A DNA stretch of 64,000 nt from positions 41,574-105,573 of the forward strand of contig CAMVGD010000001.1 of the NCBI GenBank assembly GCA_947166925.1, in the 5' to 3' direction. The stretch is from an uncultured Clostridia bacterium. Its GTDB lineage: Bacteria; Bacillota; Clostridia; Christensenellales; CAG-138. Shown here piece after piece: positions 22,323 through 42,343 of the stretch. The notes under the pieces were generated by a model, which worked only from the letters and a program-made list of their open reading frames with translations, had not been told where the DNA came from and ran no database searches. Positions within the stretch are counted from its first letter, which is position 1. The number at the start of each line of letters is the position of its first letter. Position numbers and translations under genes: made by a program.

Positions 22323-22584
22323 GGTATACCTCCGAAAATCTCCATATACATTATAGCCGAAGGCAGCAGTGTTTACAATGTTTTTTCATGCTGAATGGAG
22401 CCGACTGACCGTGCCGAAACCAGGTTCCTTCAGTGGATCCGATAAATGAACTTGTCTGTACAGGTAAAAACCGGTACAATAAAAAGACCGCTTTTATCAG
22501 AATGAGAAAAAATGGTATGATAAAAAACGGATGCAATATTTTTCGGTGTTCGTGCGTTGTTATGATGAAAGGACGGAAAATGAC

Positions 22585-24679: not shown

Positions 24680-24711
24680 GTCGCGGTTGGGTTAATCGAT
24701 ATACGCAGATC

Positions 24712-26521: not shown

Positions 26522-26567
26522 TTGTATCAGAAAAGACGCTGCATCGGACCGCCGCGGCGTCATTTTT

Positions 26568-26613
26568 GCGCGAAGCGCTTGCAATCAGATTTCTCCGCAA
26601 CAGATCGCCGTTG
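26568..26613. repeat. 46-nt direct repeat, copy 2 (partner at 8623-8668)
   Basis: gcgcgaagcgcTtgcaatcagatttctccgCaAcAgatcgccgTtg. It lies between the IS right end and the 3' end of the MATE gene. Confidence 0.8.
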
Positions 26614-26681
26614 GTATTATTATGTCATTTGCGAAACAAACCGCCGTGCTGCAGGGCTTTTCCGGAAAGGCGGGGGATCCG

Positions 26682-28112
26682 TCAGTCCGGCTGCTGTTCG
26701 CCGACGTCGGCGTCATCGCTGCGTACGATGTTGACGACCCAGCGATCGCTCCTTACCAGGATAAAGCCGATCACGCACTTGATGAGCTCCAGCGAACAGC
26801 ACACGATATAGAGCGGCAAAATCGGAAGCGCCGTAAACCGGCTCAGAACGAACGCGACGGGAATACAGATCGCCCAGACGAAGCAGCTGTCGAACAGCAT
26901 CGTGATCCGCGTCTGTCCGCCGGAGCGCAGGGTGAAATAGCAGGCGTGGGTGAACGCGTTGAACGGCATCATGCATGCGGAGACCCAGAGGAACCGCGTC
27001 GCGAGCGTCTTCACCTCGTCGCCGGTGTTGTAAAGCCGGGGGATGAACGGCGCGGCGACGGCGAGCGCGGCGCCGAAGAACAGGCAGGTGCACACCGACA
27101 GCGCAATGATCTTTCTGTCCGTGTCCTTCGCTTCCTCCAGCTTGTTCGCGCCGAGCAGGTTGCCGACGATGATGCCGATCGAGGAGCCGATGGACATGAA
27201 GACGATGTTAAAGAGGTTCGATACCGTGCTCGAAATGTTCAGCGCCGCGACCGCGGAGATGCCGCGCATCGAATAGCACTGCATCATGGTCGTCATGCCG
27301 AGCGACCAGAACGCCTCGTTCAACAGAAGCGGCGTGCCCTTCAGAACGATCTGTTTTGCAAGGGCGCCGGGCACATAAAGCGAGCGGCAGACGCCTTTGA
27401 AGAACGGGAAGCGATTCGTGTGGGTATGCGCGTAGGTCACGATGATCGCAAGCTCAACAAAGCGGGAAATGACCGTTGCGATCGCCGCGCCGAGCACGCC
27501 GAGCGCGGGGAAGCCGAGCTTGCCGAAGATCAGCAGATAGTTGAACAGCAGATTGATGAGCACGGCGGACCCGCTGGCGACCATCGGCACGAAGGTCTCG
27601 CCCGTTTCGCGCAGAGAAAAGGCGTAGCACATCGAAAGCGCGGCGGGAACGAGCCCGATCAGCATGATCAGGACGTATTTGCTGCCGTATTCGAGCGTTG
27701 CGGCAAGGTCGCCCTCCGCACCGCTTTCGTGCAGAAACAGCGTGAGCAGCGGTTTATGAAAAAAGCCGAGGACGACCAGCGCGACGGTCGAGACGCAGAC
27801 GCAGATCAGCAGCTTAAAGCGGAGCACGTGCCGCACGCCGTCCGTATCCTTTTTCCCGGCGAACTGCGCGCCGAAGATGCTGGCGCCGGAAAGCCCGCCG
27901 AAGACGGTCAGATTGAACACGAAGATCAGCTGGTTTGCGATCGCGACGCCGCTCATCTGCTCGGTTCCGATCCTGCCGACCATCAGATTGTCCAGTACGT
28001 TGACGAACTGGCTGACGCCGTTCTGGATCACGACAGGAATGACGATCGCAAGGACCGCCTGATAAAACGCTTTATTCCCGATGTATTTTGAAAGAAAAGA
28101 CCGATGTTCCAT
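26682..28112 (-). CDS. MATE-family efflux transporter
   Basis: 12-TM type protein with an N-terminal FYQAVLAIVIPVVIQNGVSQFVNVLDNLMVGRIG motif. ATG 28112 (MEHRSFL) is preferred over the upstream track start. Confidence 0.85.
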   Translation of the reverse strand: MEHRSFLSKYIGNKAFYQAVLAIVIPVVIQNGVSQFVNVLDNLMVGRIGTEQMSGVAIANQLIFVFNLTVFGGLSGASIFGAQFAGKKDTDGVRHVLRFKLLICVCVSTVALVVLGFFHKPLLTLFLHESGAEGDLAATLEYGSKYVLIMLIGLVPAALSMCYAFSLRETGETFVPMVASGSAVLINLLFNYLLIFGKLGFPALGVLGAAIATVISRFVELAIIVTYAHTHTNRFPFFKGVCRSLYVPGALAKQIVLKGTPLLLNEAFWSLGMTTMMQCYSMRGISAVAALNISSTVSNLFNIVFMSIGSSIGIIVGNLLGANKLEEAKDTDRKIIALSVCTCLFFGAALAVAAPFIPRLYNTGDEVKTLATRFLWVSACMMPFNAFTHACYFTLRSGGQTRITMLFDSCFVWAICIPVAFVLSRFTALPILPLYIVCCSLELIKCVIGFILVRSDRWVVNIVRSDDADVGEQQPD

Positions 28113-28392
28113 TGTCCGCCGTTCTCCGCAGGGCGTTCTTCCGCCCGTCCGTCTCACAGTATACCATGAACGCCTGCAAAAGAAAAGCCGGAAAGCGCGA
28201 TCCGGGCTTTTGTCAAAAAAATAGCTGCATGAATCCGTTTTGCTTTTTCGCAAAAGGGATTTCCCTTTACGGAACGATTAAGAAGGCGATGCCGACGGAC
28301 GGTTTGCCGCTTGCGTCTGTGCGCATGAGAAAAAAAGCAGTCCGAAGCGTCTGTACGGAACAGTATGCGGGCAGATGTATACAAATTTTGCA

Positions 28393-28421
28393 TTGCAATC
28401 CGACCGGATTTGCTTTACACT
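28393..28421 (+). promoter_or_regulatory. Candidate promoter of the PPTase-STAS-PP2C-NRPS operon
   Basis: TTGCAA (28393-28398), a 17-nt spacer, then TACACT (28416-28421), in an AT-rich divergent region. Confidence 0.35.
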
Positions 28422-28453
28422 GTATATGTGATAATATATAAATCCGAACGACG

Positions 28454-29143
28454 GTGCACAAAGGAATGCTGACAAGGATCTATTTTACCTGCGTAAGTCC
28501 GCTTGCGGACGAGCGGCTCTATCGAAGTCTGTACGCGGCGGCTTCGGAGGAACGAAGGCAGAAGACCGATCGGTATCGGTTTTTGAAGGACCGGATGCTG
28601 TCTCTCGGCACGGAGGGGCTGCTGCTTTACGCGCTTGGAAAGGCGGGTCGAGATTACAAAGCGGTCTCCTGTCGGTACGGGGAGCATCAAAAGCCGTATC
28701 TTTCCGACGCGGACGGGTTCTTCTTCAACTTCTCCCACGCCGGAGAATATGCGATGCTCGCGGTCTCGGATGCGGAGGTGGGCTGCGACGTCGAAAAGAT
28801 CCGTCCGGTCGATCCCGGACTGTTCGCCCGCGTGCTGACCACGGACGAGCATGCCGCACTGACGGCGGCGCCGAAAGCGGAGCGGGACGCGCTGTTTTTC
28901 CGGTACTGGGTGCTGAAGGAGAGCTGTATGAAGGCGCTCGGAAAGGGACTCCTTCTGGACCCGAGATCGTTCTCGCTCACGCTTGCCCCTGCGATCCGTG
29001 CAAGCGGCGCAGGCGTTTCGGGACCGCTTGCGTTTGCCGACGGCGCATTTTCGGACTACCGTTACGCGGTCTGCCGCTTCGGAGAAGACATTCGGATACA
29101 AACGGAGATCGTTCCGATAGAAGATATCACAGGAGGTATTTGA
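28454..29143 (+). CDS. Sfp-type 4'-phosphopantetheinyl transferase
   Basis: FNFSHAGEYAMLAVS..VGCDVEKI and FFRYWVLKESCMKALGKGL are PPTase motifs. The start is uncertain (GTG 28454 or ATG 28466). Confidence 0.85.
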   Translation: MHKGMLTRIYFTCVSPLADERLYRSLYAAASEERRQKTDRYRFLKDRMLSLGTEGLLLYALGKAGRDYKAVSCRYGEHQKPYLSDADGFFFNFSHAGEYAMLAVSDAEVGCDVEKIRPVDPGLFARVLTTDEHAALTAAPKAERDALFFRYWVLKESCMKALGKGLLLDPRSFSLTLAPAIRASGAGVSGPLAFADGAFSDYRYAVCRFGEDIRIQTEIVPIEDITGGI

Positions 29144-29144
29144 C

Positions 29145-29438
29145 ATGACCATTGAAAAGATCGAAGAAAACGGTGTCGTTACGCTGAAGCTCGCGGGCTG
29201 GCTCGACACGCAGGCCGCAGCACTGTTTGAGGAGCAGATCGAAGCGCTGGACCCCGGCACGCCGTCGCTTGTTCTCGACCTTGCAGCGCTGGAGTACACG
29301 TCCTCGGCCGGACTCCGGCAGATCGTCGCCGCCCACAAAAAGGTGGACGGACGCCTGACGCTGAAGAACGTACAGCCGGAGATCATGGATGTGCTCGAAA
29401 TGGCAGGATTCTTAAAGCGCCTGCACGTTGAATCATGA
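29145..29438 (+). CDS. STAS-domain protein (anti-sigma-factor-antagonist type, SpoIIAA/RsbV-like)
   Basis: 97 aa with LDLAALEYTSSAGLRQIV (a conserved phosphorylatable Ser context). It starts 1 nt after the PPTase stop. Confidence 0.85.
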   Translation: MTIEKIEENGVVTLKLAGWLDTQAAALFEEQIEALDPGTPSLVLDLAALEYTSSAGLRQIVAAHKKVDGRLTLKNVQPEIMDVLEMAGFLKRLHVES

Positions 29439-31384
29439 AGCGTTCGATCGGAAAACAGATCGTTCTGCTTTTTTCGATCACGCTGATCCTGACCATCCTT
29501 GCGTCGGCGGCGCTCGGTTTCAGCAGTGCGTATTCGGCCGAGCTGGAGCAAAACCGGACCGTCGGACGCAGCGCAGCTTATATCACCTCGGATATTCTGA
29601 ATACGATCGGTCTGGATCTGATCATGGATCCGCAAAACGACCTGGCGTACGATATGGCCAGAATGCAGCTCCGGACGGTCTGCCAAAGCCTGTCGCTGAC
29701 GTATCTGTATGTCTATACCGTAGATGCGGACGAGGTGCGGCATTATGTCGTGACCGTCGCTTCCGACGATGTGCTCGACGAGACTGTGCGCGAAGGGCTC
29801 GGGCTCGGCGCCGTCAGCCGGGAGCCGCTGCATGAGCAGGAGCGCGTCGCGCTTGCCGGCGGGGAGAGCGACAGCCGCTTTCTTCTGAACAATCGGTTCG
29901 GCAGAACGTCCGTATGGACCACGCCTTACTTTTCTCCGAGCGGAAAGCTTGCCGCGCTGATCGGCGCGGACGTCAGCGTCGAGGTCAGCAACGATGCGAT
30001 CATGAAGCAGTTTCTTGTGCGCGTTCTGCCCGTGTCCGCGTTTCTGATCGCGGCGTTTCTCTTTTTGTATTTCCTGCTGCATCGCCGTCTGATCCGGCCT
30101 TTGCACACCGTCGCGGCGCGCATGGAACAGTTCGATCCGTCGACGGAAAACGAGCCGCTTTCGATCCGTTCGCAGGATGAGATCCAGCAGATCGCCGATG
30201 CGTTCGAAAAGATGTCCGGCGATATCCGCAGGTATATCCGCAATATCGAAACGATCACCGCGCAGCGGCAGTATGAACGCGCGCAGCTTGACGTTGCCCG
30301 GCGCATCCAGTACGGAATGGTTCCGGCGTCGTTCCATGACTGCAGGGACGGCGTGGACGTCTCCGGGCTGATGCGCCCCGCAAAGGAGGTCGGCGGCGAC
30401 TTCTACGATTGCTTCCTGCGCCCCGACGGGCAATACTGCGCGTTGATCGCAGACGTCTCCGGCAAGGGCGTTGCAGGCGCGCTGTTCATGGCGCTGACCA
30501 AGAATCTTGTGCGGGAGCGGATCATGCACTGCGAGGATCCGGCGGAGGCGCTGAACAGCGTCAACGACGACCTTTGCGCGCAAAACCCCGAGGGCATGTT
30601 CGTTACGCTCTTTGCAATGCTCATCGACCCGCAGACCGGGGCGGTCCGCTGCGCCAACGCGGGACATAACCCGCCCGTGCTGCTGAAGCGCGGCGCGGCT
30701 GCGTATATGAAGCCGAAGCCCGGCATCGCGCTCGGGCTTTTCCCGGACGCGGACATCGAAACGGAGACCTTGACGCTCGCGCCCGGTGAAGGTGTGCTGC
30801 TGTATACCGACGGCGTGACCGAGGCGGTCAGTACGGAAAAAACATTTTACGGCACGGAACGGCTCCTGAAGCTTACGGAGACGCTCGGCAGAACGGACAG
30901 CCGCGCGGCCGTAACGGCGGTCGAGGAATCGGTCGACGCGTTCTTTGCCGGCTGCGAGCAGTTCGACGACATCACGGTCGTTGCGGCATATTATACGGGA
31001 GCGGACGAGCGGACGGCGCTGGCGCTTACGCTCGACGCGTTCGAGCCGGTCAAGCAAAAAATCCTTTCCGAATGCGAGGGGAGCGCGAACGCGAAAAAGA
31101 TCGTGCTCGCCTGTGAAGAAGCCTTCGTCAACATCGTGCGATACGCAAACGCGACCGAGGCCGATTACCGCGTCATGCGCGAAGGCGAACTGCTGACCGT
31201 GGAGCTTCGGGACAACGGCACGCGCTTCGACCCGTTCTCGGAAACATTGAAGGATGACGACGAGTTCTTAAGCATGGACGAGGGCGGACTCGGCATCCGT
31301 TTTATCCGGGATCTCACAGCGAACGCCGGATGGAGCTACGTTGACGGCAGAAACGTTTTGACGCTGGTTTTCAGAATCCGATAA
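29435..31384 (+). CDS. Membrane sensor-HAMP-PP2C (SpoIIE-type) phosphatase fused to a C-terminal RsbW/SpoIIAB-like ATPase/kinase domain
   Basis: ATGA overlap with the STAS gene. Two TM segments flank an extracytoplasmic region of about 165 aa. PP2C core AKEVGGDFYDCF...ADVSGKGVAGALFM...NAGHNPP...LYTDGVTEA. C-terminal EEAFVNIVRYA, RDNGTRFDP and EGGLGIRFI (N, G1 and G2 boxes). Confidence 0.85.
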   Translation: MKRSIGKQIVLLFSITLILTILASAALGFSSAYSAELEQNRTVGRSAAYITSDILNTIGLDLIMDPQNDLAYDMARMQLRTVCQSLSLTYLYVYTVDADEVRHYVVTVASDDVLDETVREGLGLGAVSREPLHEQERVALAGGESDSRFLLNNRFGRTSVWTTPYFSPSGKLAALIGADVSVEVSNDAIMKQFLVRVLPVSAFLIAAFLFLYFLLHRRLIRPLHTVAARMEQFDPSTENEPLSIRSQDEIQQIADAFEKMSGDIRRYIRNIETITAQRQYERAQLDVARRIQYGMVPASFHDCRDGVDVSGLMRPAKEVGGDFYDCFLRPDGQYCALIADVSGKGVAGALFMALTKNLVRERIMHCEDPAEALNSVNDDLCAQNPEGMFVTLFAMLIDPQTGAVRCANAGHNPPVLLKRGAAAYMKPKPGIALGLFPDADIETETLTLAPGEGVLLYTDGVTEAVSTEKTFYGTERLLKLTETLGRTDSRAAVTAVEESVDAFFAGCEQFDDITVVAAYYTGADERTALALTLDAFEPVKQKILSECEGSANAKKIVLACEEAFVNIVRYANATEADYRVMREGELLTVELRDNGTRFDPFSETLKDDDEFLSMDEGGLGIRFIRDLTANAGWSYVDGRNVLTLVFRIR

Positions 31385-31412
31385 TAAAATCATACAGACG
31401 CAGGAGGAACAT

Positions 31413-34400
31413 ATGACGGAATCGAACAGAGAGATCAATCTGAATGCGGGACAGACCGGCATCTATCTTGAATGCGTGCAGGCGCCGGATACGCTGAAAT
31501 ACAATATTCCGGTGTTCGTGCGGCTCCCGGAGGACGTCGAACGGGAACGGCTGATCGTCGCGGTCGGGACGGCTGCCGAAGGTCATGAGGCGCTGTTTGC
31601 CGTCGTTCGGGAATCGCGGGGCGTGCCCGCGATCGTATTCAAAAGGACGGAGATCCGTGTGGATACGCTTCGCGCGGACAGGATCGAGGAGGGCGTCAGG
31701 GACTTTATCAGACCGTTCGATCTTGCAAACGGTCCGCTGTACCGGTTCGCCTATCTCAGCACGCCCGAGGGAGACGGACTTCTTCTCGACGTGCACCATA
31801 TCGTATTCGACGGCTTTTCGCTGCATCTGCTGCTCGACGAGATCGCCGCGGCATACGGCGGCGAAGCGCTTCCGAAGGAATCGCCGACGTTCTCCGAGCT
31901 TCTGACGCCGGCAGTGAAGGACCCCGAATGGACAGAACGGATCCGGGCGATGCTCCGGGACGAGCTGGAAGGCGCGGATTTCGATTTTCGTCTCGACCCG
32001 GATCAGATCCTGAAGGAAAAGCCCTCCGGCATGGGGATTTGCGAGATCCCGATCGGCGCCCTTCCGATCGGCGCGGGCGAAGCCTTCGCAAAGACAAACG
32101 GGATCAGCGAAAACGCGCTGTTTCTCGGCGCTTTCGGCTTTGCGCTGGCGGCTTATGCCGGCACGGAGGAGGCGGTCTTTTCTTCGGCGCATTACGGACG
32201 TTCGGCGTTCAAAAACGATCCGGTCGTCGGCATGTTCGTACGTACGCTGCCGATCCGTGTCCGCTTCTCGGCGGACGAAAGCCCGAAGGCATACCTTTCC
32301 CGCGTCTATGACAGCTATTACCGGATGCAGCAGAACGACTGCGTCGATTTTTCCGAGCTTGCGGCGACGTACGGGATCCGCGAGAACCTCTCCTTCGTAT
32401 ACCATGCGGATCTTCTGAACGACATTGCGATCGGCGGGAAGACCGCGCCGGTCGAGCTTTTGAATACGAACGATCCGATCTGCGATCTGGAATTCACGGT
32501 CCGCAAGCGTCAAAACGGCTACGCGGTGATCGCAAAGTACCGCCGGTCTCTGTACACGGAGGACTATATCCGAAGCTTTACCGATACGTTTCAGACCGTC
32601 GCGGCGCAGATGTGCACCGCGGACCGCATCGGCGCGATCGATCCCGTTTCCGCGGCGAACCGTGCGCGTATCGACGCCTTCAACCGCACGGAAAGGGAAT
32701 ACGACACGACGCATACGGTCGTCGATCTGTTCCGGATGCAGGCGCGCAAAACGCCTGATGCGGAGTGCCTTGTATATCTCGACAAGCGCTTCACCTATCG
32801 CGAGGTCGACGAGATCACCGAGCGCCTTGCGAAGCATCTTGTAAAGCGCGGCATAGGAAGGGGCAGCATCATCGGGATCATGATCCCACGGTGCGAATAC
32901 ATGCTGCTGTGCTCGATGGGGGTTCTGAAATCGGGCGCGGCATACCTCCCGATGGATCCCTCGTACCCAACGGAGCGGCTGAATCAGATGCTTTCGGATT
33001 CCGGCGCGTCGTTTCTGATCACGACGGAGGAGCTTTCGCCCCGCATCACGGACGACTTTGCCGGCGAACGGATGATGACCGATGCGATCCCAAAGCTTTT
33101 GGACGACGATACGGCGCTTGCAGCCCCGTCGCCCGAGGATCTGTTCATCGTTCTGTATACCTCCGGTTCGACCGGAAAGCCGAAGGGCGTTATGTTCCGC
33201 CATGCGAACACGATGGTCACCGTCGCCTGGGGACGCGAGTTCTTCGGCTTCGGGGAAGGCAGCCGGTTCGGGGTCTATGCCAGCTTCGGCTTCGACGCCA
33301 ATGTTTTCGATACCTATCCCATTATCACCTCCGGCGCGGCGCTGTACATCATTCCGGACGAGCTGCGGCTCGATCTCTTTGCGCTGCAGCGCTATTTCAA
33401 CGAGAACGGAATCACGAATTCCATCATGACCACGCAGGTCGGCACGCAGTTTTTGCGCATGCAGGGCACAAAGACGCTCCGCACGCTTTCGGTTGCGGGG
33501 GAAAAGCTTGTGCCGATCGACCCGCCGAAGGACTTTCAGCTGTATAATCTGTACGGGCCGACGGAGGGCTCGGTGCTGGTCACCGCATTCCCCGTGGACC
33601 GGCCGTACGAGGACATCCCGATCGGACATGCGGTCGACAACGTCAAGCTGTATGTCGTGGACGGTTCCGGCCGTCTTGTGCCGCCCGGCGCGAAGGGTGA
33701 GCTGTGGATCACCGGCCCGCACGTGACGGCGGGATACCTGAACGATCCCGAAAAGACCGAAAAGGCGTATGTCAATAATCCGTTCTGCACGGCGCCGGGC
33801 TATGAGCGCGCCTATCGCACCGGCGATCGTGTGCGCTTCCTCATGGACGGCAATCTGCAGTTCGTGGGCCGCGGCGACAGTCAGGTCAAGATTCGCGGCT
33901 TCCGCGTGGAGCTCAAGGAGGTCGAGGAGGTCATCCGCCGCTTCGACGGGATCAAGGACGCGACGGTCGCGGACTTTACGGAGCCGTCCGGCGGCAAATT
34001 CATCGCGGCGTACGTCGTCGCCGACGAGCCGGTCGACGTCGCGGCGCTGAACGCGTTTATCCGGTCCGAAAAACCGGACTACATGGTCCCGGCGGTGACG
34101 ATGCAGATCGAACGCATCCCGCTGAACCAGAACCAGAAGGTCAATAAGAAAGCGCTGCCCTATCCCGAGCGGCAGCAGAAGCAGGAAACGCCGCCCGAGA
34201 ACGAAACGCAGCAGAAGGTTTTCGATCTTGCGGCGGAAGCGATCGGGCATTCGGGGTTCGGGATCGATACGAACCTTCTGGACGCGGGTCTGACCTCGGT
34301 CGGCGTGCTGAAGCTGAACGTGGCTTTGAGCGAAGCGTTCGGCGTCAACATGCGGATCTCGGAGCTAAGGCAATACGAAACGATTCGCAAGCTTGCGGCG

Positions 34401-37400
34401 GTCCTCGCGCCCTCGGCGGATCAGGAACGGACGACCGAAACGCCGCAGGAAGCGCAGCCCGGCGAAACGGAGACCTGTCCGCTGTCGAGCGTACAGCAGG
34501 GCGTCTATGTGGAATGCCTTGCAAGTCCGAACTCGACCGCATACAACATCCCGCTGCTTCTGAAGCTCGACCCCTCGGTCGATGCCGACCGCCTCAAAGC
34601 AGCGCTGACTGCGGCGATCGACGCGCATCCGTATCTCAAGATGCAGCTCGTCGTTTCCGGATCCGGCAAGGTCATGGCCGAGCGGCACGATACGGATCCG
34701 ATCGAGATCGCGATCCTCGACCGATCGGACCTGCATCTCGGCTTTTCCGAGCTCGTCCGCCCGTTCCGCCTGACGGACGCGCCGCTCGTGCGCGCCGCGC
34801 TGATCCGGGACGGCGCGAGCCTGTATCTGTTCTTCGACGCGCATCATCTGGTCTTTGACGGAGAATCGCTCATCGTGCTCCTGCGCGATCTTGAGCTCGC
34901 CTACGGCGGCGGCACGCCGAAAGCGGAACGCTTTACCGGTTTTGAATATGCGCTGGAGGAAGAAGCGCTTCGCAGGGGACCGGCATACGCGGAGGCGAAG
35001 GCTTACTATACCGCCCTGCTCGACGGACTGGACGCCGATTGCCTGCCCGTGCGCGACAAGAATGATGCGGTCGCCGACGTCGGGCTTTTGTCGCATCGCG
35101 TCGCCGTAGACCGCGCCGCCGCGGAGCGGTTCCTGAAGAACGCGCGGACCACTGCAAACGCGCTCTGGAACGCGGCGTTCGGCTTCACGCTTGCAAAGTT
35201 CCTCGCCCGCAGCGATTGCGTCTATACCACCGTCTACAACGGCAGGAACGACGCGCGGCTGATGGATTCCATCGGCATGTTCGTGCACACGCTTCCGGTC
35301 GTCTGCGATCTGAAAAAGGACGAGACCGGCAGTGCGTTCGTTTCGCGCATCGGCAGGCAGCTCAATGACAGCATGGCGCACGATATCTATTCGTTCGCGG
35401 AGATCTCCCGCGCGTTCGACGTCAAGGCAAACATCCTGTTCGTCTATGAAGGCGCGATCGGCGGGTCCTTTACCGTCGGCGGAAGTCCTGCGGAGCAGAT
35501 CGCGCTCCAGCCGGACGACCGAAAGGCGCCGCTGACCTTCTTTGTGTTCGACACGGAGGAGGGCTTTAGGATCGATTGCGAATACGAGACGGAGCACTAT
35601 GAAGAATGGGACGTCCGCTCCCTGCTCGAGAGCCTGGAGCAGGCGCTCAAAGCGCTGTTAAGAGATGAACCGCTTGACGCGATCTCGCTGCTGACGGAAG
35701 ACGGGAGGGAACAGCTTGTGGCGTTCAACCGTACCGAGAAGGAGATCGAGGACGCCGATATCGCGACACAGTTCAGACGGATCGCCGCGCGGTATCCGGA
35801 CCGCACCGCACTGATCTGCGGCGACGTTCGCATGTGCTATCGCGCGGTCGACGATCTGTCCGACCGGATCGCGGCATACGCAAGGCGCCTCGGGATCGGA
35901 CCGGAGGACGTCGTATCCATCCTGATCCCGCGCAGCGAATACATGGCGGTGACCGCGCTCGGCGCGCTGAAGGCGGGCGCGGCGTATCAGCCGCTCGACC
36001 CGGGCTATCCCACCGAACGTCTGCAGTACATGATCGGCGACGCGAATGCGAAGCTGCTGATCACGGACGAGACGCTTCTGGACCTGCTGCCGGATTACAA
36101 GGGTCCCGTGCTGCTTCTGAAGGATATCGCATCGCTTCCGGAGAGCGGCGCGGTCGAGTCCGGTTTAAGCCCCGACAACCTGTTCATCCTGCTCTATACC
36201 AGCGGCACCACAGGCAAGCCGAAGGGCGTGATGCTGACGCATAATAATCTCGTCAACTTCTGCGATTGGTACCGGACGTACTATGAACTGACGCCCGAAT
36301 CGGTCGTCGCCGCGTACGCCAGCTTCGGCTTCGACGCGAACATGATGGACATGTACCCGGCGCTCACGACCGGCGCGGCAGTATGCATCGTGCCGGAGGA
36401 CCTTCGGATCGATCTGCCGCTGCTGAACGAATACTATCAAAAGAACGGCGTGACGCACGTCTTTATGACGACGCAGATGGGTCGTCTGTTCGCCTCGCAG
36501 ATTCAGGACGCAAAGCTTCGGCATCTGTCCGTCGGCGGCGAAAAACTCGTACCGCTGCAGCCGCCGAAGGGCTACACGCTCACCAACGGCTACGGACCGA
36601 CCGAGTGCACGATCTTTTCCACGACACAGCCGGTCGACCGGCTCTACGACCGCATTCCGATCGGATCGCCGCTGTCAAACTACAAGCTTTACGTTACGGA
36701 CAGCTTCGGTCACGAGATGCCGGTAGGCGCGATGGGCGAGCTCTGGATCGCAGGACGCGGCGTCGGACGCGGATACCTGAATCTTCCGGAACGGACCGCA
36801 GCGGTGTTCACGAAGAATCCGTTCTGCAGCAGTCCCGGCTTTGACCGCGTGTTCCGCACCGGCGACATCGTACGGCGTCTCAACGACGGCAGGATCGACT
36901 TCATCGGCCGCAACGACGGTCAGGTCAAGATCCGCGGCTTCCGCATCGAGCTTGCCGAGGTCGAGGGCGTCATACGCGACTATCCCGGCATTCGCGACGT
37001 TACCGTGCAGGCGTTCGAGGACGAGGCGTTCGGCGGAAAATATATCGCCGCCTACATCGTTTCGGACGCGGCGGTGGACTTCGGAAAGCTCAGCGATTTT
37101 ATCCGCAGCAAAAAGCCCTCGTACATGATCCCGGCGGCGTTCATGCAGCTCGACGCGATCCCGTTGAATCAGAATCAGAAGGTCAACAAGCGCGCGCTGC
37201 CGAAGCCGAAACGGCGCGAGGAGACCGGCGTCTTCGTGGAGCCGGCGACGCCGCTCGAACGCGAGATCTGCGAGAAATACGCGTCGATCCTCGGGCTTGA
37301 TCGGGTCAGCGCGACGGACAGTTTCTTCGACATCGGCGGCAGCTCGATCAGCGTGGCGGAGATCGTCATGTTCGCCATGAACAAGGGCTATCCGATCGTC

Positions 37401-38669
37401 TATAAGGATGTGTTTGCAAACCCGTCCGCCCGCGAGCTCGCCCGCGTGATCGTCGGTCAGGGAAAGGACGAGAAATCCAGGGCGGCAGCGGACTTCGACT
37501 ATACCGCGATCAACGAGCTGATCAAGGTCAATACCATGGACCGTGTGGACGAGATCTCCGCGCATCCGCTCGGAAACGTCATCCTCACCGGCGCGACGGG
37601 CTTCCTCGGCATCCACGTGCTGTACGCATATCTCAAAAACACGGACGGAAAGATCACCTGCCTCATCCGCCGCGGCCGCTACGAAACGGCGGAAAAGCGC
37701 ATGAAGACGATGCTGATGTACTACTTCGGCGAGATGATGCCGGAGCTGTTCGGCAAGCGCATCTTCTGTGTGGACGGCGATATCACCGTGCCGGAGAGCC
37801 TCACCGCGCTCGAAACGGCGGACGCCGACGCCGTCATCAACTGCGCAGCCTGCGTCAAGCACTTCGCAAAGGACGATATCCTCGACCGGATCAATGTGCA
37901 CGGCGTCGAAAACCTGATCGATTTCTGTGTGCGCAGCAAAAAGCGTCTCGTGCAGATCTCCACGATCAGCGTCGGCGGCGAGATCGGCACAAAGAACCTG
38001 CAAAAGCTTCGGGAGGATATGCTCTACTTCGGACAGAACGTCGACAACGATTACGTCCGCACCAAGTTCCTCGCCGAGCGCGCGATCCTGAACGCGCGCG
38101 TGAACCGCGGACTCGACGCGGTGATCCTGCGCGTGGGCAACCTGATGGGACGGCATACGGACGGCGAGTTCCAGATCAACTTCGAGACGAACGCCTTCAT
38201 GCGTTCGCTTTGGGCGTACATCCAGCTTAAACAGGTTCCGGTCACGATCCTCGAGCAGCCCGCGGAGTTCTCTCCCATCGATTCCGTTGCGAACGCCGTC
38301 CTGACGCTCGCCGGCGCGGACAGCCGCTTCAGCATCTTCCACGTGAACAACAATCATTCGGTCACGATGGCGGACCTGATGGCGGTCGTACGGCAGCACG
38401 GCTTTGACGTCAGGACCGTTTCGGAGGCGGAATTCAGGAACACGCTCAGCGAGGCTACGAAGCACGAGGAGGAGAGCCGGACCGTGCTCTCGCTGGTCGC
38501 CTATTCCAACAAGGAGGGCGATGACCTTGCGCTGGTCGAAGCCGACCATCGCTTCACGGTCAACGCGCTTTTCCGGCTCGGCTTCAAGTGGCCGATCATC
38601 GATGACAGCTATCTCGAACGCGTGATCCAGTCTCTTGATTCCTTCGGCTTCTTTACGGAGACGGTATGA
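31413..38669 (+). CDS. Bimodular non-ribosomal peptide synthetase, C-A-T-C-A-T-R (terminal thioester reductase)
   Basis: 2418 aa with an AGGAGG RBS. All core motifs are readable (see the domain features below). Confidence 0.95.
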   Translation: MTESNREINLNAGQTGIYLECVQAPDTLKYNIPVFVRLPEDVERERLIVAVGTAAEGHEALFAVVRESRGVPAIVFKRTEIRVDTLRADRIEEGVRDFIRPFDLANGPLYRFAYLSTPEGDGLLLDVHHIVFDGFSLHLLLDEIAAAYGGEALPKESPTFSELLTPAVKDPEWTERIRAMLRDELEGADFDFRLDPDQILKEKPSGMGICEIPIGALPIGAGEAFAKTNGISENALFLGAFGFALAAYAGTEEAVFSSAHYGRSAFKNDPVVGMFVRTLPIRVRFSADESPKAYLSRVYDSYYRMQQNDCVDFSELAATYGIRENLSFVYHADLLNDIAIGGKTAPVELLNTNDPICDLEFTVRKRQNGYAVIAKYRRSLYTEDYIRSFTDTFQTVAAQMCTADRIGAIDPVSAANRARIDAFNRTEREYDTTHTVVDLFRMQARKTPDAECLVYLDKRFTYREVDEITERLAKHLVKRGIGRGSIIGIMIPRCEYMLLCSMGVLKSGAAYLPMDPSYPTERLNQMLSDSGASFLITTEELSPRITDDFAGERMMTDAIPKLLDDDTALAAPSPEDLFIVLYTSGSTGKPKGVMFRHANTMVTVAWGREFFGFGEGSRFGVYASFGFDANVFDTYPIITSGAALYIIPDELRLDLFALQRYFNENGITNSIMTTQVGTQFLRMQGTKTLRTLSVAGEKLVPIDPPKDFQLYNLYGPTEGSVLVTAFPVDRPYEDIPIGHAVDNVKLYVVDGSGRLVPPGAKGELWITGPHVTAGYLNDPEKTEKAYVNNPFCTAPGYERAYRTGDRVRFLMDGNLQFVGRGDSQVKIRGFRVELKEVEEVIRRFDGIKDATVADFTEPSGGKFIAAYVVADEPVDVAALNAFIRSEKPDYMVPAVTMQIERIPLNQNQKVNKKALPYPERQQKQETPPENETQQKVFDLAAEAIGHSGFGIDTNLLDAGLTSVGVLKLNVALSEAFGVNMRISELRQYETIRKLAAVLAPSADQERTTETPQEAQPGETETCPLSSVQQGVYVECLASPNSTAYNIPLLLKLDPSVDADRLKAALTAAIDAHPYLKMQLVVSGSGKVMAERHDTDPIEIAILDRSDLHLGFSELVRPFRLTDAPLVRAALIRDGASLYLFFDAHHLVFDGESLIVLLRDLELAYGGGTPKAERFTGFEYALEEEALRRGPAYAEAKAYYTALLDGLDADCLPVRDKNDAVADVGLLSHRVAVDRAAAERFLKNARTTANALWNAAFGFTLAKFLARSDCVYTTVYNGRNDARLMDSIGMFVHTLPVVCDLKKDETGSAFVSRIGRQLNDSMAHDIYSFAEISRAFDVKANILFVYEGAIGGSFTVGGSPAEQIALQPDDRKAPLTFFVFDTEEGFRIDCEYETEHYEEWDVRSLLESLEQALKALLRDEPLDAISLLTEDGREQLVAFNRTEKEIEDADIATQFRRIAARYPDRTALICGDVRMCYRAVDDLSDRIAAYARRLGIGPEDVVSILIPRSEYMAVTALGALKAGAAYQPLDPGYPTERLQYMIGDANAKLLITDETLLDLLPDYKGPVLLLKDIASLPESGAVESGLSPDNLFILLYTSGTTGKPKGVMLTHNNLVNFCDWYRTYYELTPESVVAAYASFGFDANMMDMYPALTTGAAVCIVPEDLRIDLPLLNEYYQKNGVTHVFMTTQMGRLFASQIQDAKLRHLSVGGEKLVPLQPPKGYTLTNGYGPTECTIFSTTQPVDRLYDRIPIGSPLSNYKLYVTDSFGHEMPVGAMGELWIAGRGVGRGYLNLPERTAAVFTKNPFCSSPGFDRVFRTGDIVRRLNDGRIDFIGRNDGQVKIRGFRIELAEVEGVIRDYPGIRDVTVQAFEDEAFGGKYIAAYIVSDAAVDFGKLSDFIRSKKPSYMIPAAFMQLDAIPLNQNQKVNKRALPKPKRREETGVFVEPATPLEREICEKYASILGLDRVSATDSFFDIGGSSISVAEIVMFAMNKGYPIVYKDVFANPSARELARVIVGQGKDEKSRAAADFDYTAINELIKVNTMDRVDEISAHPLGNVILTGATGFLGIHVLYAYLKNTDGKITCLIRRGRYETAEKRMKTMLMYYFGEMMPELFGKRIFCVDGDITVPESLTALETADADAVINCAACVKHFAKDDILDRINVHGVENLIDFCVRSKKRLVQISTISVGGEIGTKNLQKLREDMLYFGQNVDNDYVRTKFLAERAILNARVNRGLDAVILRVGNLMGRHTDGEFQINFETNAFMRSLWAYIQLKQVPVTILEQPAEFSPIDSVANAVLTLAGADSRFSIFHVNNNHSVTMADLMAVVRQHGFDVRTVSEAEFRNTLSEATKHEEESRTVLSLVAYSNKEGDDLALVEADHRFTVNALFRLGFKWPIIDDSYLERVIQSLDSFGFFTETV
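31434..32700 (+). other. NRPS condensation domain C1 (N-terminal, starter-type position)
   Basis: HHIVFDGFS with His128/129 encoded at 31794-31799. Confidence 0.8.
32706..34165 (+). other. NRPS adenylation domain A1
   Basis: LYTSGSTGKPKG, SFGFDANVFD, NLYGPTE, GELWITGPHVTAGY, YRTGDRVRF, GRGDSQVKIRGFRVEL, NQNQKVNKKALP. Confidence 0.85.
34209..34405 (+). other. NRPS carrier (T/PCP) domain T1
   Basis: LLDAGLTSVGVLKL, with the candidate phosphopantetheine Ser962 at 34296-34298. This is a non-canonical GLTS rather than GGxS. Confidence 0.7.
34476..35720 (+). other. NRPS condensation domain C2
   Basis: HHLVFDGES with His1144/1145 encoded at 34842-34847. Confidence 0.85.
35751..37205 (+). other. 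NRPS adenylation domain A2
   Basis: LYTSGTTGKPKG, SFGFDANMMD, NGYGPTE, GELWIAGRGVGRGY, FRTGDIVRR, GRNDGQVKIRGFRIEL, NQNQKVNKRALP. Confidence 0.85.
37248..37452 (+). other. NRPS carrier domain T2
   Basis: FFDIGGSSISVAE, with Ser1978 at 37344-37346. Confidence 0.8.
37578..38666 (+). other. NRPS terminal thioester reductase (R, SDR fold)
   Basis: Rossmann motif ILTGATGFLG, and YVRTKFLAE (YxxxK) near 38053. Confidence 0.8.
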
Positions 38670-38727
38670 TCGTCCGATCGAACTGCGCTCCCGACGGCAT
38701 CGCCGGGAGCGCTTCCTTGTTTCGGGC

Positions 38728-39090
38728 GGCTATGCGCCGCAGACGATCCGGCGGGGGACGAGTTCTTCCGCACGGGCGAGAAGGGCGTCCATGCGAAAAA
38801 AACTTCCGGCGGGTTCCAGACTTTCAGACGCTCGGTGACGCCTTCCGACGGCGCTGTTCGGGGGACCGCGGATTCGATCTGCTCCCTTGCCGTGCGGTCG
38901 ATCTCTGAAAAGGCATAAAACCGTTTCCCCGGGCAAAGCCGGAGACTGACGGCGCCGGTCCGGCTTCAAGGGGGGTGCTCTGAACGCGCGGATACTTCCG
39001 GACAAACAGAATGGGAAAAGTGCAAAGCGGGACAGGAAAATGTGCGAAACCGTATCCTGCGGATCCCGGAAAGACAGTACAAATGAAAAA
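38728..39090 (-). pseudogene. Degraded tnpV homolog (at least two frameshifts)
   Basis: Minus-strand pieces lie in different frames: RKYPRVQSTPLE / PGKRFYAFSEIDRTAREQIESAV...EGVTERLK / RMDALLARAEELVPRRIVCGA*. They align in order with the intact TnpV (GKYGRMRKHYLEE / DKLTEHLLDVDRTAWEQLESTV...EGVTEALK / RMNNLRARAEEIVIREVVYGE*). The nucleotide similarity to 600-720 is visible directly. Confidence 0.55.
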
Positions 39091-39381
39091 AGCTATTATT
39101 GCAGCAAACGAAAAAAGCGGGACCGGAATACGCCGGGCTGCCGCCGTACCCTGCGGCATAAAGTCTGATTTCGGGTCTCAGCTGAATATGAAAAGGGATA
39201 CGATCGTCGCCGAAACGGGTTCGCATTTTTCTGGATTTTAGGGAAAGGACGGCTGTTTATTTGGACATTCTTTGGACATGCTTTGCTATAATAAAATGTT
39301 GAAAAATATATTTTTGCATGTTGCCGGTCCGAACGATTGACGGCGGCAAGGAAACAATTCAATTGACAGGAGGAAAAAACA

Positions 39382-40419
39382 ATGTTCTCATTCAAAGGAC
39401 CCGGATTGAAAATCTTCGCGGCGATCCTTGCCGTGATCGTGCTCGGCGTCGGCGTTTATTTCACGTTCTTCCGGTCGAAGGGCTATGAAAAGACCGAAGC
39501 GACCATCGTTTCCATCGAAAACGACCCGGATTACATCCCCGATCCGGACACCGAAAACGACGCCGGACGGATCGTGACCGTGAAGTACACGGTCGACGGC
39601 AAGGAATATACGGCGCAGCTCGATTCCGACAGCCCGTCTTACGAGGTGGGGAAGACGGTTCATATTCAGTATGATCCGCAGAACCCCGCAAAGATCACGT
39701 CCTCGAAGGGCTTCGGCATCTATTTCATGATCGCGGGCGCGGTCATCCTGCTTCTGGTGGTCGGACTGACGGTCAAAAAGAAGCTCGACGTCAAGAAGCT
39801 CAAGGAAACGCAGGGCGAGACCGTCTATGCGCCGTCCGAGCAGGGCGAGGAGCGCGAGCTGTACTTCTTGACCGACCTCGGCACGCCGAAGTACGGTCAT
39901 CGCATCGAGGACAAGGACCGCAACGTCCTCTACGAGGCGAAGATGACGAAGTTCACGCTGGCGGGTCCGTTCGGCTTCGACTTCATCGACTATGAGCACG
40001 GCACGACCAGGGCGCACCTCGTCGGACATCAGGAGGAGACCGACTGGAATTCCTTCCTGCTCGACAACCACTACACCTTCTCGCTGGACGGCGAGGACAT
40101 CTGGAAGCATCTGAAGCGGAACGGCGTCAAGGTGGAATCCCGCTTTGCGCAGGGCAAGGTCCTGTTCCCGTCCTACACGGTTTCGAGAGACGGCGCGGAG
40201 ATCGGCTATATCGAGGCTTCGAGCCAGTACGTCCATGAGGAGGACGCGGAGGAGCATACGGTCGCGAACAAGGTCCCGGTTGCGGGATTCTATCGCATCT
40301 TCACGAGTGAAAAGAACCTCGACCTGCTGTTCGTCGTCGCGCTTGCATTCGCGCGCAGCGGCGCTACGGACGACAAGGGCGGTTCCCGCAAGATCGTCTT
40401 CAACACCCTGAAGGGCTGA
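39382..40419 (+). CDS. Membrane protein with a DUF3592-like N-terminal module and an uncharacterised C-terminal domain of about 200 aa
   Basis: GGAGG-type RBS. The layout is TM, then a beta-rich segment (ATIVSIEND...VTVKYTVDGKEYTA...YEVGKTVHIQYDPQNP), then a second TM, which is typical of DUF3592. The C-terminal fold is not assignable by eye. Confidence 0.6.
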   Translation: MFSFKGPGLKIFAAILAVIVLGVGVYFTFFRSKGYEKTEATIVSIENDPDYIPDPDTENDAGRIVTVKYTVDGKEYTAQLDSDSPSYEVGKTVHIQYDPQNPAKITSSKGFGIYFMIAGAVILLLVVGLTVKKKLDVKKLKETQGETVYAPSEQGEERELYFLTDLGTPKYGHRIEDKDRNVLYEAKMTKFTLAGPFGFDFIDYEHGTTRAHLVGHQEETDWNSFLLDNHYTFSLDGEDIWKHLKRNGVKVESRFAQGKVLFPSYTVSRDGAEIGYIEASSQYVHEEDAEEHTVANKVPVAGFYRIFTSEKNLDLLFVVALAFARSGATDDKGGSRKIVFNTLKG

Positions 40420-40479
40420 GATCCCGTAAATCGTACGGAACTTTCCGAAATACAGCAAAGACAAGGATCAGGAGGCATT

Positions 40480-41445
40480 ATGGACAACAAACAAATCTAC
40501 AGAAAGACGCTCGGATTCTCCCTGCGCCGCGTGCTCTGGGATATCATTTCGGTCGCGCTGCTTTTAGGCGCGGGAACGCTCGGCTATTTCCTCGGCGAAA
40601 AATACGCGCAAAACGGACCGATCGGTCTGCTGATCGGCGGCGTGATCGGCATCGTTGCGCTGGTCCTCATTACGCGGTTCATTTCGTATGCGCTGAAAGC
40701 CGGACAGATCGCCATGATGACCCGCGGCGTTTCCGAAGGCGAGCTGCCCGACGACGTTATCAAAGAGGGCAAGAAGGTCGTCAAGGAGCGCTTCGCGACC
40801 GTTGCGGCGTTCTTCGCGATCACCGGCGTGATCCGCGGGATCTTCAACCAGATCGGCCGCGGCGTCACGAAGCTCGGCGAAAGCATCGGCGGCGATACCG
40901 GCGGCGCGATCGGCGGCGCAGTGAGCTCCGTCATGCAGACGATCGTCAATTATCTTTGCGACTGCTGCCTCGGCTGGGTCTTCTACCGCAAGGAGGTCAA
41001 GCCCGCGCGGGCGGCGTGCGAAGGCGCGGTGCTGTTCTTCAAGCACGGCAAGACGTTTGCAAAGAACATGGGCCGCGTGTTCGGCATAGGCTTTGCTTCT
41101 CTGCTCGGGATCGGCGGCGTATCCGGCGTCATTTCGTACCTGATCCTGAAGGGGCAGACGTTCTATCAGCCGCTTGCGGCGTGGATGACGGAAAACCTTA
41201 CCGATACGTCGAACTGGCTCGGTCAGATCCTCAGCAATCCCAAAACGCTGCCCATCGCTTTCGCGGCGCTCATCGGGATCATCGTGTGGGCGATCATCCA
41301 CTCGGTATTTATCAAGCCGTTCGTGCTGGTCGGCGTGCTGAGAAACTACATCGAATCCGGCAAGAACGATATCCCGTCGGAGGAGAGCTTCCGGATGCTC
41401 GATTCCAAGTCTCCGAAGTTCCGCAAGCTCCATCAGCAGATGTAA
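40480..41445 (+). CDS. Hypothetical polytopic membrane protein
   Basis: AGGAGG RBS, several hydrophobic helices and Gly-rich loops (GGDTGGAIGGAV). I recognised no family. Confidence 0.55.
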   Translation: MDNKQIYRKTLGFSLRRVLWDIISVALLLGAGTLGYFLGEKYAQNGPIGLLIGGVIGIVALVLITRFISYALKAGQIAMMTRGVSEGELPDDVIKEGKKVVKERFATVAAFFAITGVIRGIFNQIGRGVTKLGESIGGDTGGAIGGAVSSVMQTIVNYLCDCCLGWVFYRKEVKPARAACEGAVLFFKHGKTFAKNMGRVFGIGFASLLGIGGVSGVISYLILKGQTFYQPLAAWMTENLTDTSNWLGQILSNPKTLPIAFAALIGIIVWAIIHSVFIKPFVLVGVLRNYIESGKNDIPSEESFRMLDSKSPKFRKLHQQM

Positions 41446-41480
41446 CGGACGCGGGTACGATCCGAGAGGTGTTTACCGTT

Positions 41481-41900
41481 ATGAATAAAAGATCTGTCGC
41501 TGCAATCGTTCTTGCCGCCGTCGCGCTGTGCCTGTCGGTCGCGGGACTGATCGTTGCGCTGCTGCCGAAGCAGGCAGCGGGGGACGTGCAGTACGTCATG
41601 TATCTCGGTACGAACGATAAGGATACGAACGAGCCGGTGTTCACGCCGGACGAAGCCAAAACGAAAGCGGAGGAGATCCTGCTCAAGCATGTCGGCGGCT
41701 GGACGATCCAGGAGGCGAACGGCGGCTGGGCAGACGGAGAGATGCTCTATCGCGAATACACGATCGTGATCTATCTGAGCGACACGAGCGCGGAAGCCGT
41801 TCACGCCGCTGCGGACGACCTGATCGCGGCGTTTCATCAGAGCTCCGTTCTGATCCAGAAAAACGTGACCGCGACCGAGTTCTATTACGGCAGACCGTAA
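41481..41900 (+). CDS. Small membrane-anchored or secreted protein (tentatively DUF3574-like)
   Basis: In-frame ATG at 41481 within track ORF 40956-41900. It has an N-terminal signal/anchor (VAAIVLAAVALCLSVAGLIVALL) followed by YLGTNDKD...GGWTIQEANGGW...EYTIVIYL. Confidence 0.5.
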   Translation: MNKRSVAAIVLAAVALCLSVAGLIVALLPKQAAGDVQYVMYLGTNDKDTNEPVFTPDEAKTKAEEILLKHVGGWTIQEANGGWADGEMLYREYTIVIYLSDTSAEAVHAAADDLIAAFHQSSVLIQKNVTATEFYYGRP

Positions 41901-41920
41901 GCGGTCCGACCGAAGCATAT

Positions 41921-41960
41921 CCGGCGCCGCGCGTTTTGCGGCGCCGGTATCCGGGTTTTC
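41921..41960 (+). terminator. Possible terminator (GC hairpin with a weak T tract)
   Basis: ccggcgccg (41921-41929) pairs with cggcgccgg (41939-41947), followed by tatccgggttttc. Confidence 0.4.
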
Positions 41961-42015
41961 ACGGACCGGAACGAATCATCAGATAACCCATAGCGGGAGA
42001 AAAAGGAGCAAAGCA

Positions 42016-42312
42016 ATGACGATTCAAAAAACCCAAAATGAAAAGGCGCTGACGATCGCCCTTGAAGGGCGGCTGGATACCTTGACCGCGCCGGAGCTGG
42101 AGGCGGTGCTGAACGACGCGCTTGCGGACGCGGAGGAGCTGACCTTCGATTTTGAGAAGCTCGATTACATCTCCTCGGCAGGTCTTCGCGTGCTGCTTGC
42201 GGCGCAGAAGACGATGAACCGGCAGGGGACCATGAAGGTGATCCATACGAACGAAATGATCCGGGAGATCTTCGAGGTCACCGGTTTTTCGGACATTCTG
42301 ACCGTCGAATGA
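42016..42312 (+). CDS. STAS-domain protein (second copy)
   Basis: 98 aa with FDFEKLDYISSAGLRVLL. Same length class and motif as 29145-29438. Confidence 0.85.
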   Translation: MTIQKTQNEKALTIALEGRLDTLTAPELEAVLNDALADAEELTFDFEKLDYISSAGLRVLLAAQKTMNRQGTMKVIHTNEMIREIFEVTGFSDILTVE

Positions 42313-42343
42313 CCGTTGCCCGGAAAAGGATAAAAAGTATTCC

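Follow-up and report, generated by a model that had tools for sequence, protein, structure and literature searches.

What does a partner-switching pair do in the middle of a peptide assembly pathway? The question is raised by a locus of an uncultured Clostridia bacterium (contig CAMVGD010000001.1), in which a STAS protein and a sensor-phosphatase-kinase fusion protein are encoded between the genes of a phosphopantetheinyl transferase and a nonribosomal peptide synthetase (NRPS). All positions given for this locus refer to the 64,000-nucleotide (nt) stretch of the contig that was analyzed, here called the window. With a little better than even confidence, we read positions 26682–38669 as a five-gene cassette of the peptide-aldehyde NRPS family that ends in a reductase (R) domain, and the STAS and fusion proteins as its dedicated partner switch, operating without a sigma factor. 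The five genes and the terminal domain of the synthetase are the following (aa, amino acids; C, A and T, condensation, adenylation and carrier domains):

26682–28112, minus strand: MATE-family efflux transporter gene (476 aa; Pfam MatE)
28466–29143, plus strand: Sfp-type 4'-phosphopantetheinyl transferase (PPTase) gene (225 aa; Pfam ACPS and AASDHPPT_N)
29145–29438, plus strand: single-domain STAS gene of the anti-sigma-antagonist type (97 aa; Pfam STAS)
29435–31384, plus strand: fusion gene for a transmembrane (TM) sensor, HAMP, PP2C and HATPase_c_2 (649 aa; Pfam HAMP, SpoIIE and HATPase_c_2)
31413–38669, plus strand: bimodular NRPS gene of the order C-A-T-C-A-T-R (2418 aa; Pfam and motif positions)
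37575–38666, plus strand: terminal thioester-reductase (R) domain of the NRPS (aa ~2055–2418; motifs TGATGFLG and YVRTK)

The four plus-strand genes are tightly packed, exactly as a preliminary description of this DNA had given them. A single nucleotide separates the stop codon of the PPTase gene (TGA, 29141–29143) from the STAS start codon (ATG, 29145), and an AGGAGG sequence is located at 29131–29136. The STAS stop codon shares the tetranucleotide ATGA (29435–29438) with the start codon of the fusion gene, while a gap of 28 nt containing AGGAGG separates the last base of the fusion gene (31384) from the NRPS start codon (31413). Pfam agrees with the identity that had been proposed for each of the four genes, and the divergent MATE gene on the minus strand was found as well.

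Linkage of the partner-switch pair to R-terminated NRPS genes

Adjacency in one genome proves little in this case, because more than 7600 homologues share the fusion architecture and the window contains further switch genes. A second pair, composed of a STAS gene (42016–42312) and a gene for a HAMP-SpoIIE-HATPase_c_2 fusion (42344–44380) on the plus strand, encodes a fusion protein 29% identical to the first one. The contigs of nine homologues of the first fusion protein (89, 71, 59, 50, 46, 41, 39 and 37% identity) were therefore examined. Eight of these nine relatives adjoin an R-terminated NRPS gene. Three gene orders were observed among them, namely STAS-fusion-NRPS, MatE-NRPS-STAS-fusion and NRPS-MatE::HATP-STAS-fusion, the last with or without a following PPTase gene, and the surrounding genes were unrelated between loci. 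NRPS counterparts of 2414–2435 aa adjoin the STAS and fusion genes in the relatives that we designate L001, L002, L005, L009 and L012.

The linkage was also surveyed from the NRPS side. One genome per species was scanned with an alignment of the R domain, which yielded 585 related loci, and the best 80 were kept. These were searched with purpose-built hidden Markov models for STAS, PP2C, HATPase_c_2, MATE, PPTase and the sensor; many of their contigs are incomplete. At least one partner-switch part was present in 61 of the 80 loci, with a STAS gene in 48, a MatE::HATPase_c_2 fusion in 45 and a PP2C gene in 31. Fifty of 51 STAS genes were transcribed in the direction of the NRPS gene at a median distance of 293 nt from its open reading frame (ORF), and half of the loci with a STAS gene (24 of 48) carried it within 150 nt of that ORF. 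The cassette was found in metagenome-assembled genomes (MAGs) assigned to Lachnospiraceae, Blautia, Ruminococcus, Oscillospiraceae, Atopobiaceae, Chloroflexi, Treponema and Selenomonadaceae. In a MAG assigned to a Thermoplasmata archaeon (L087, 10001–14727), genes for the R-terminated NRPS, the PPTase, a PP2C::HATPase protein and a STAS protein follow each other consecutively. As the cassette is present across these phyla and in an archaeal MAG, it appears to be transferred as a unit.

Taken together, the conservation of gene content strongly supports a functional link of the STAS and fusion genes to the NRPS. On the same comparative grounds, a partner-switch pair is typical of this NRPS family and not peculiar to the window locus. 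The preliminary description had correctly argued against chance neighbors, and the outcome that it named as damaging, homologous clusters that never carry the pair, turned out the opposite way; its view that the pair is unusual has to be given up, since such genes are the common state of the family.

A minimal type of the cassette was observed in Blautia and relatives (L029–L037). It consists of MatE::HATPase, an NRPS of about 3000 aa, STAS, in part a stand-alone HATPase_c_2 gene, and PPTase. Judged by the domain list of the similar-sized enzyme of L014, these synthetases are probably trimodular. No PP2C gene was found within 10 kb in L029–L037. As the predicted phospho-acceptor serine described below is conserved there, the phosphatase is either encoded elsewhere or absent.

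Domains of the synthetase and of the switch proteins

The NRPS matched the Pfam families Condensation (in three stretches), AMP-binding (twice), PP-binding (twice) and NAD_binding_4. All motif positions that had been quoted for it were exact on recomputation. Module 1 contains HHIVFDG at aa 128, LYTSGSTGKPKG at aa 581 and the carrier Ser962, and module 2 contains HHLVFDG at aa 1144, LYTSGTTGKPKG at aa 1594 and the carrier Ser1978. The R domain harbors the Rossmann motif TGATGFLG at aa 2059 and the YxxxK motif YVRTK at aa 2214. The HHxxxDG motifs of both C domains, the A3 motifs, both carrier serines and the two R-domain motifs were thus all located, and the order C-A-T-C-A-T-R with a reductase at its end stands as first described. 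The R domain scored well above the cut-off of NAD_binding_4 (4e-35; 121.6 bits versus 20.1 bits) and also matched Epimerase (5e-20). Its best NCBIfam similarities, to the AusA C-terminus and to TIGR01746, were both under the cut-off. From its motifs and family match, the terminal domain is a thioester reductase of the SDR type, although the family-specific model TIGR01746 was not formally passed (175 versus 213 bits).

Partial specificity codes were read by hand from the A4, A5 and A10 anchors of the A domains (A1, D-A-F..S-A-L-V-L; A2, D-A-M..S-G-G-I-F), with position 278 unplaced without a reference sequence. The partial codes matched no canonical code that was verified, and an assignment of substrates was dropped. 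The PPTase matched ACPS (3.7e-18) and AASDHPPT_N (7e-07) in Pfam, while its NCBIfam matches to AcpT, HetI and AusB were all under the cut-off. Comparison of the R domain revealed 43–73% identity to loci in Blautia, Lachnospiraceae, Ruminococcus and Enterocloster; the best 80 of the 585 related R domains were 40–73% identical and came mostly from gut and rumen Clostridia. By architecture and homology, the NRPS fits the peptide-aldehyde/pyrazinone family of gut and rumen Clostridia.

The STAS protein was recognized by Pfam STAS (2.8e-13) and by NCBIfam TIGR00377 (55.3 bits, over the cut-off of 53.45 bits), and its sequence matches in the PDB were SpoIIAA and RsfB. Ser54 within the motif YTSSAGLR was invariant in all 60 distinct NRPS-linked STAS proteins. 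We take it to correspond to the phospho-acceptor Ser58 of SpoIIAA, based on a hand alignment to the SpoIIAA sequence. Ser54 is therefore the predicted phospho-acceptor of the STAS protein.

The fusion protein matched HAMP, SpoIIE (5e-49) and HATPase_c_2 (4e-12) in Pfam. Two hydrophobic segments, TM1 (aa ~8–30) and TM2 (aa ~192–216), enclose a single extracytoplasmic domain (aa ~35–190) and are followed by HAMP (aa 214–265), PP2C/SpoIIE (aa 285–525) and an RsbW-type HATPase_c_2 domain (aa 535–649). An AlphaFold2 (AF2) model of aa 1–276 (pLDDT 85.5) displayed one alpha/beta domain between the hydrophobic segments. Foldseek matched this domain to the sensor domains of WalK, DctB, Tlp3 and CitA with E values down to 1e-08. 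According to the model, the sensor is a single extracytoplasmic domain of the Cache/PDC-like fold. All four Asp-containing PP2C motifs (GGDFYD 320, DVSGKG 340, YTDGVTE 457 and FDDIT 510) and the kinase boxes N (EEAFVN 561), G1 (DNGTRF 593) and G2 (GGLGI 617) are present and were nearly invariant among 60 homologues. With its activities deduced from these motifs, the fusion protein looks like a transmembrane receptor that carries an opposing phosphatase and kinase for one substrate, the co-translated STAS protein.

Candidate outputs of the switch

No sigma or anti-sigma gene was found in the window cluster, as the preliminary description had stated, and the classical output of a partner switch is missing from it. 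Moreover, no gene of the Sigma70 family was present within 10 kb in ten Pfam-annotated homologous contexts. The only sigma gene near the window cluster encodes an extracytoplasmic function (ECF) sigma factor (22531–23157, plus strand) and is followed by its own RsgI-like anti-sigma gene with PepSY repeats (23147–24679). This ECF system was considered as the missing output and rejected: it has its own anti-sigma factor, a transposase gene separates it from the cluster, and it is absent from the context of L001.

A different output is suggested by the exporters of the relatives. MatE::HATPase_c_2 fusions were found in L012 (7958–9694), L014 (1–691), L096 (10001–11749), L097 (10001–11746) and 45 of the loci L016–L095. 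The fusion family has at least 800 members, which are named in their sources only 'ATP-binding protein' or 'MATE family efflux transporter'. All sampled cases adjoin an R-terminated NRPS gene. When two fusions on long contigs were sampled from the exporter side, both were part of PP2C::HATP-STAS-NRPS-MatE::HATP cassettes. The PP2C-fused and stand-alone HATPase_c_2 domains retain the elements E..N, DxG..F and GGlGi. In contrast, the MATE-fused domains have kept the N and G1 boxes, but their lid is six residues shorter and '.GIe' replaces the G2 glycines, leaving no GxG. Such degeneration would be in keeping with a domain used for docking, or at least with a kinase that has diverged. In the AlphaFold model of one MatE::HATPase protein, a MATE body of 12 helices precedes a small alpha/beta domain, with low confidence precisely at the lid. 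The presence of an RsbW-like domain on the exporter in 45 of 80 loci suggests a post-translational output at the level of the exporter.

Beyond the domain assignments, we infer the following course of events. An extracellular small-molecule cue would shift the balance between kinase and phosphatase in the fusion protein, the PP2C-fused kinase inactivating the STAS protein and the sensor-controlled PP2C reactivating it. This balance would set the phosphorylation state of Ser54. Unphosphorylated STAS protein would then bind a partner and gate the pathway at the protein level. In the relatives, the partner would be the lid-degenerate RsbW-like domain of the exporter and the step under control would be export, an output that we favor because this domain on the cluster MATE is the evident STAS partner in most of them. 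In the window, where the only RsbW-like domain of the cluster is the one fused to PP2C, free STAS protein might contact the exporter in another manner, bind the NRPS (e.g. a carrier domain) or bind only the fused kinase domain. In its most specific form, our proposal is that a sigma-independent switch couples a Cache-sensed extracellular cue to post-translational gating of peptide-aldehyde secretion or assembly, with an as yet undescribed class of MATE transporters bearing a lid-degenerate, RsbW-like STAS-receptor domain as its output in most relatives. We put this forward tentatively, and would not ourselves grant it an even chance. The preliminary description had also suggested, as possibilities, an N-acylated product and a sensing of the product by the switch.

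Several observations weigh against a dedicated switch acting on export in the window cluster. Its MATE transporter lacks a C-terminal HATPase_c_2 domain (only MatE was matched in Pfam and NCBIfam), shares only 23% identity with the MATE portion of the fused exporters and is divergently transcribed, so that the Rosetta-stone argument from the fusions does not directly apply to it. Any contact of its STAS protein with exporter or NRPS is hypothetical, a sigma factor encoded elsewhere may be the output, and the peptide aldehyde is a putative product of this cluster. Co-transcription of the four plus-strand genes is likewise putative, and a promoter-like TTGACG-16-GATAAT element just upstream of the NRPS start may argue against a single transcript. 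Among the relatives, 19 of the 80 NRPS loci, such as those of Acetobacterium, contained no partner-switch part, and 13 loci had a MatE::HATPase fusion without a STAS gene in the covered sequence. Finally, L007/L008 (50% identity; L007 8982–11947) is the exception among the fusion relatives, as PPTase, STAS and fusion genes are kept with no NRPS gene adjoining. The NRPS gene there was either lost or split off to another site. Abi_2, DUF1016 and a 1552-aa unknown gene occupy its position on the opposite (minus) strand.

The window transporter matched Pfam MatE (1.7e-45) and NCBIfam TIGR00797 (189 bits, over the cut-off), and its gene is 94% identical in DNA sequence to that of L001. By sequence comparison it belongs to a MATE lineage different from that of the fused exporters. 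Within the close clade, a plain MATE gene is present in L001 and L010, and no MATE gene was found nearby in L002, L005 and L009.

A classical transcriptional switch would explain the locus differently. The HATPase_c_2 domain of the fusion protein would act as anti-sigma factor for a distant sigma factor, and dephosphorylated STAS protein would free this sigma factor to transcribe the NRPS operon, a positive autoregulation of the kind seen for the sigB operon. In favor of it, each of the three parts has its homologues in RsbU/RsbV/RsbW and SpoIIE/SpoIIAA/SpoIIAB, regulators are often co-transcribed with their own targets, and regulation of NRPS expression has been proposed for a similar archaeal locus (PMC2812497). 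Nevertheless, we regard this explanation as unlikely in view of the absence of Sigma70-family genes from the ten annotated contexts, the private anti-sigma factor of the only sigma factor nearby, its separation by a transposase gene and its absence from the L001 context, and the tethering of the relatives' extra RsbW-like domain to a MATE transporter, a sign that the target is a membrane protein and not RNA polymerase.

Similarly improbable, in our judgment, is a direct control of the synthetase, in which unphosphorylated STAS protein docks on a T or R domain and governs loading or release, the exporter fusions being secondary. Here, the position of the STAS gene is in favor: it is the switch part nearest to the NRPS gene, often within 150 nt and almost always on the same strand, and it also occurs in cluster types without MatE::HATPase, the window included. 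The STAS domain of Escherichia coli YchM is reported to have been crystallized together with acyl carrier protein, whose fold is related to that of T domains. In Anabaena, a partner-switch-like STAS protein was reported to regulate a biosynthetic enzyme directly (bioRxiv 10.64898/2026.04.08.717354). The Pfam domains of the NRPS gave no sign of a docking site in the form of an additional domain or an insertion, however, and the interaction is hypothetical; direct control would also leave the RsbW-like domain on so many exporters unexplained. Chance adjacency, finally, would mean that in an organism rich in STAS and SpoIIE genes a pair of the stress or sporulation type happens to sit between PPTase and NRPS. 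The wide distribution of the fusion architecture fits this idea, as do the second pair of the window and a third SpoIIE gene (57573–59000), neither of which is located beside an NRPS gene. But the orthologous subfamily remains tied to R-terminated NRPS genes at identities as low as 37%, despite rearrangements, between differing flanks and across phyla, the second pair of the window is only distantly similar to the first, and a divergence of 37–89% identity argues against one recently spread mobile element. We consider coincidence very improbable.

Locus boundaries and related systems

Two promoter-like sequences were noted in the cluster:

28393–28421, plus strand: TTGCAA-17 nt-TACACT upstream of the PPTase gene (read directly; putative)
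31358–31385, plus strand: TTGACG-16-GATAAT at the end of the fusion gene (10/12 matches; candidate internal promoter)

The first base of the upstream element, 28393, is the start coordinate used in the preliminary description. The element is kept in L001 and L005 (TTGCAA-17-TAGACT) and was not listed by the automated promoter scan. A consensus scan of 26500–39500 for promoters and terminators gave match counts not above those of shuffled sequence and was uninformative on operon structure, and neither a riboswitch nor a leader was matched in an Rfam search of 26000–42500 (E<=0.1). The PPTase most likely starts at the ATG at 28466 and not farther upstream, the resulting 225 aa being the length of the L001 relative (89% class). 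For the MATE gene, 28112 is the most likely start (MEHRS...), and the divergent intergenic region then measures 353 nt. An 80-aa ORF (38666–38908, plus strand), whose ATG overlaps the NRPS stop codon in an ATGA, is rich in Arg, Ala, Ser and Gly, was not matched in Pfam and probably does not represent a gene.

DNA homology to the closest relative, L001, extends over window positions 26677–28204 and 28367–38722 and resumes at 59639 (95% identity); the conserved unit therefore reaches from the MATE to the NRPS gene. The intervening block of about 21 kb (38723–59638), either an insertion in the window or a deletion in L001, holds the second switch pair and ABC/FtsX genes. An ABC-transporter flank is 97% identical between the window (17966–20487) and L002 (19426–21947), whereas the NRPS cluster of L002 is only 80% identical to that of the window and oppositely oriented relative to this flank. 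A DDE transposase gene (24851–26347, plus strand) lies beside the cluster, immediately upstream of the MATE gene. From these comparisons, the NRPS cluster looks like a variable island that is rapidly exchanged or rearranged.

Neither the ECF sigma gene, the RsgI-like anti-sigma gene nor the DDE transposase gene (22531–26347, plus strand) was found in the L001 context. Downstream of the second switch pair (44396–54439), genes are located for a 226-aa protein without Pfam match, a DUF3089/DUF218 protein, a GAF-domain ABC ATPase (47106–48326) and two very large FtsX-type permeases (48333–50987 and 51023–54439). The second pair (42016–44380) may be another partner switch next to a transporter. A LytS-like histidine kinase gene (55335–56717, plus strand) and a gene for a 5TMR-LYT-SpoIIE phosphatase (57573–59000, minus strand), the third PP2C-family gene in 64 kb, follow.

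Few biosynthetic clusters of the human and ruminant gut are as widespread as the R-terminated NRPS clusters of gut Clostridia, whose aldehydes inhibit host proteases. These clusters yield di- and tripeptide aldehydes or pyrazinones. They were reportedly described by Guo et al. in Cell in 2017, and the rup/ruminopeptin cluster of Ruminococcus bromii is said to have been the subject of work by Schneider and Balskus in 2018. The window cluster resembles these systems, compared by architecture, in its bimodular (C-)A-T-C-A-T-R NRPS with PPTase and MATE from an anaerobic gut or rumen Firmicutes background. According to reviews, the products are dipeptide aldehydes that cyclize to pyrazinones. Exhaustive attempts to isolate such products from native producers failed (PMC12327764). 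Our literature search did not find the gut aldehyde clusters discussed in terms of partner-switch genes.

When the literature was searched for STAS/SpoIIE together with NRPS, and for partner switching together with MATE, the Methanobrevibacter ruminantium genome paper of 2010 was the only relevant one retrieved, and no later analysis came up. In strain M1, phosphatase, antagonist and MatE genes near the NRPS gene mru0068 (locus mru0066–0071) were noted in one paragraph, and at a second locus (mru0512–0516), genes for a PPTase and a phosphatase are accompanied by those for an antagonist and for an anti-sigma Ser/Thr kinase (Leahy et al. 2010, PMC2812497). The authors suggested that these genes sense the environment and regulate NRPS expression (PMC2812497). 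The association of NRPS and partner-switch genes has thus already been noted in passing. That locus, likened to ours by description, differs in its archaeal host, whose genes concerned are thought to be bacterial in origin, and in its parts, which are unfused and spread over two loci. The Thermoplasmata locus L087 echoes it and suggests a transfer of the whole cassette into archaea. The present analysis newly contributes a count of partner-switch parts across the family, the Cache type of the sensor, the invariance of Ser54 and, as candidate output, the MATE::RsbW-like fusions.

By analogy, the mechanistically nearest systems would be SypE/SypA, HenR/All4160 and MlaB-MlaF. SypE is a cytoplasmic protein of the order kinase-REC-PP2C with phosphorelay input. 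In contrast, the fusion protein of the window is membrane-bound, follows the order Cache-HAMP-PP2C-kinase, has an extracytoplasmic sensor and is linked to an NRPS instead of a polysaccharide pathway. Both systems share a kinase and a PP2C in one protein, a single-domain STAS protein, a biosynthetic locus and the lack of a sigma output. In Vibrio fischeri, SypE combines an RsbW-like Ser kinase and a PP2C domain in one polypeptide that acts on SypA, a STAS protein encoded within the 18-gene syp locus for polysaccharide biosynthesis and export, for which no sigma output exists and the STAS target is unknown (PMC4517449, PMC10120452). HenR/All4160 of Anabaena provides a precedent for a partner switch on biosynthesis without a sigma factor (bioRxiv 10.64898/2026.04.08.717354), and MlaB-MlaF one for a STAS protein acting on a transporter without a sigma factor (PMC7367683). 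For STAS and MatE::HATPase, we propose a post-translational control of the transporter by protein contact, for which MlaB-MlaF and the SulP/SLC26 carriers with their C-terminal STAS domains are the models. There, the STAS domain binds an ABC ATPase or is part of the carrier, whereas in the relatives of the window locus the MATE transporter bears the RsbW-like domain and the STAS protein is separate and presumably phosphorylatable. To RsbU/RsbV/RsbW and SpoIIE/SpoIIAA/SpoIIAB, the system is linked by homologous PP2C, STAS and GHKL kinase components with conserved catalytic and phospho-acceptor motifs. Unlike in these, no sigma gene lies in or near the window cluster, a single membrane protein unites kinase and phosphatase, and the relatives possess a second, lid-degenerate RsbW-like domain fused to MATE.

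If the proposed mechanism is true, it would mark the first case of a partner switch devoted to an NRPS pathway and account for the silence of these gut clusters in culture. It would extend partner switching to the control of a secondary-metabolite assembly line or of a MATE transporter. The Cache ligands, Ser54 and the contact between STAS protein and exporter would offer a testable lead on what turns on gut metabolites that are hard to express.

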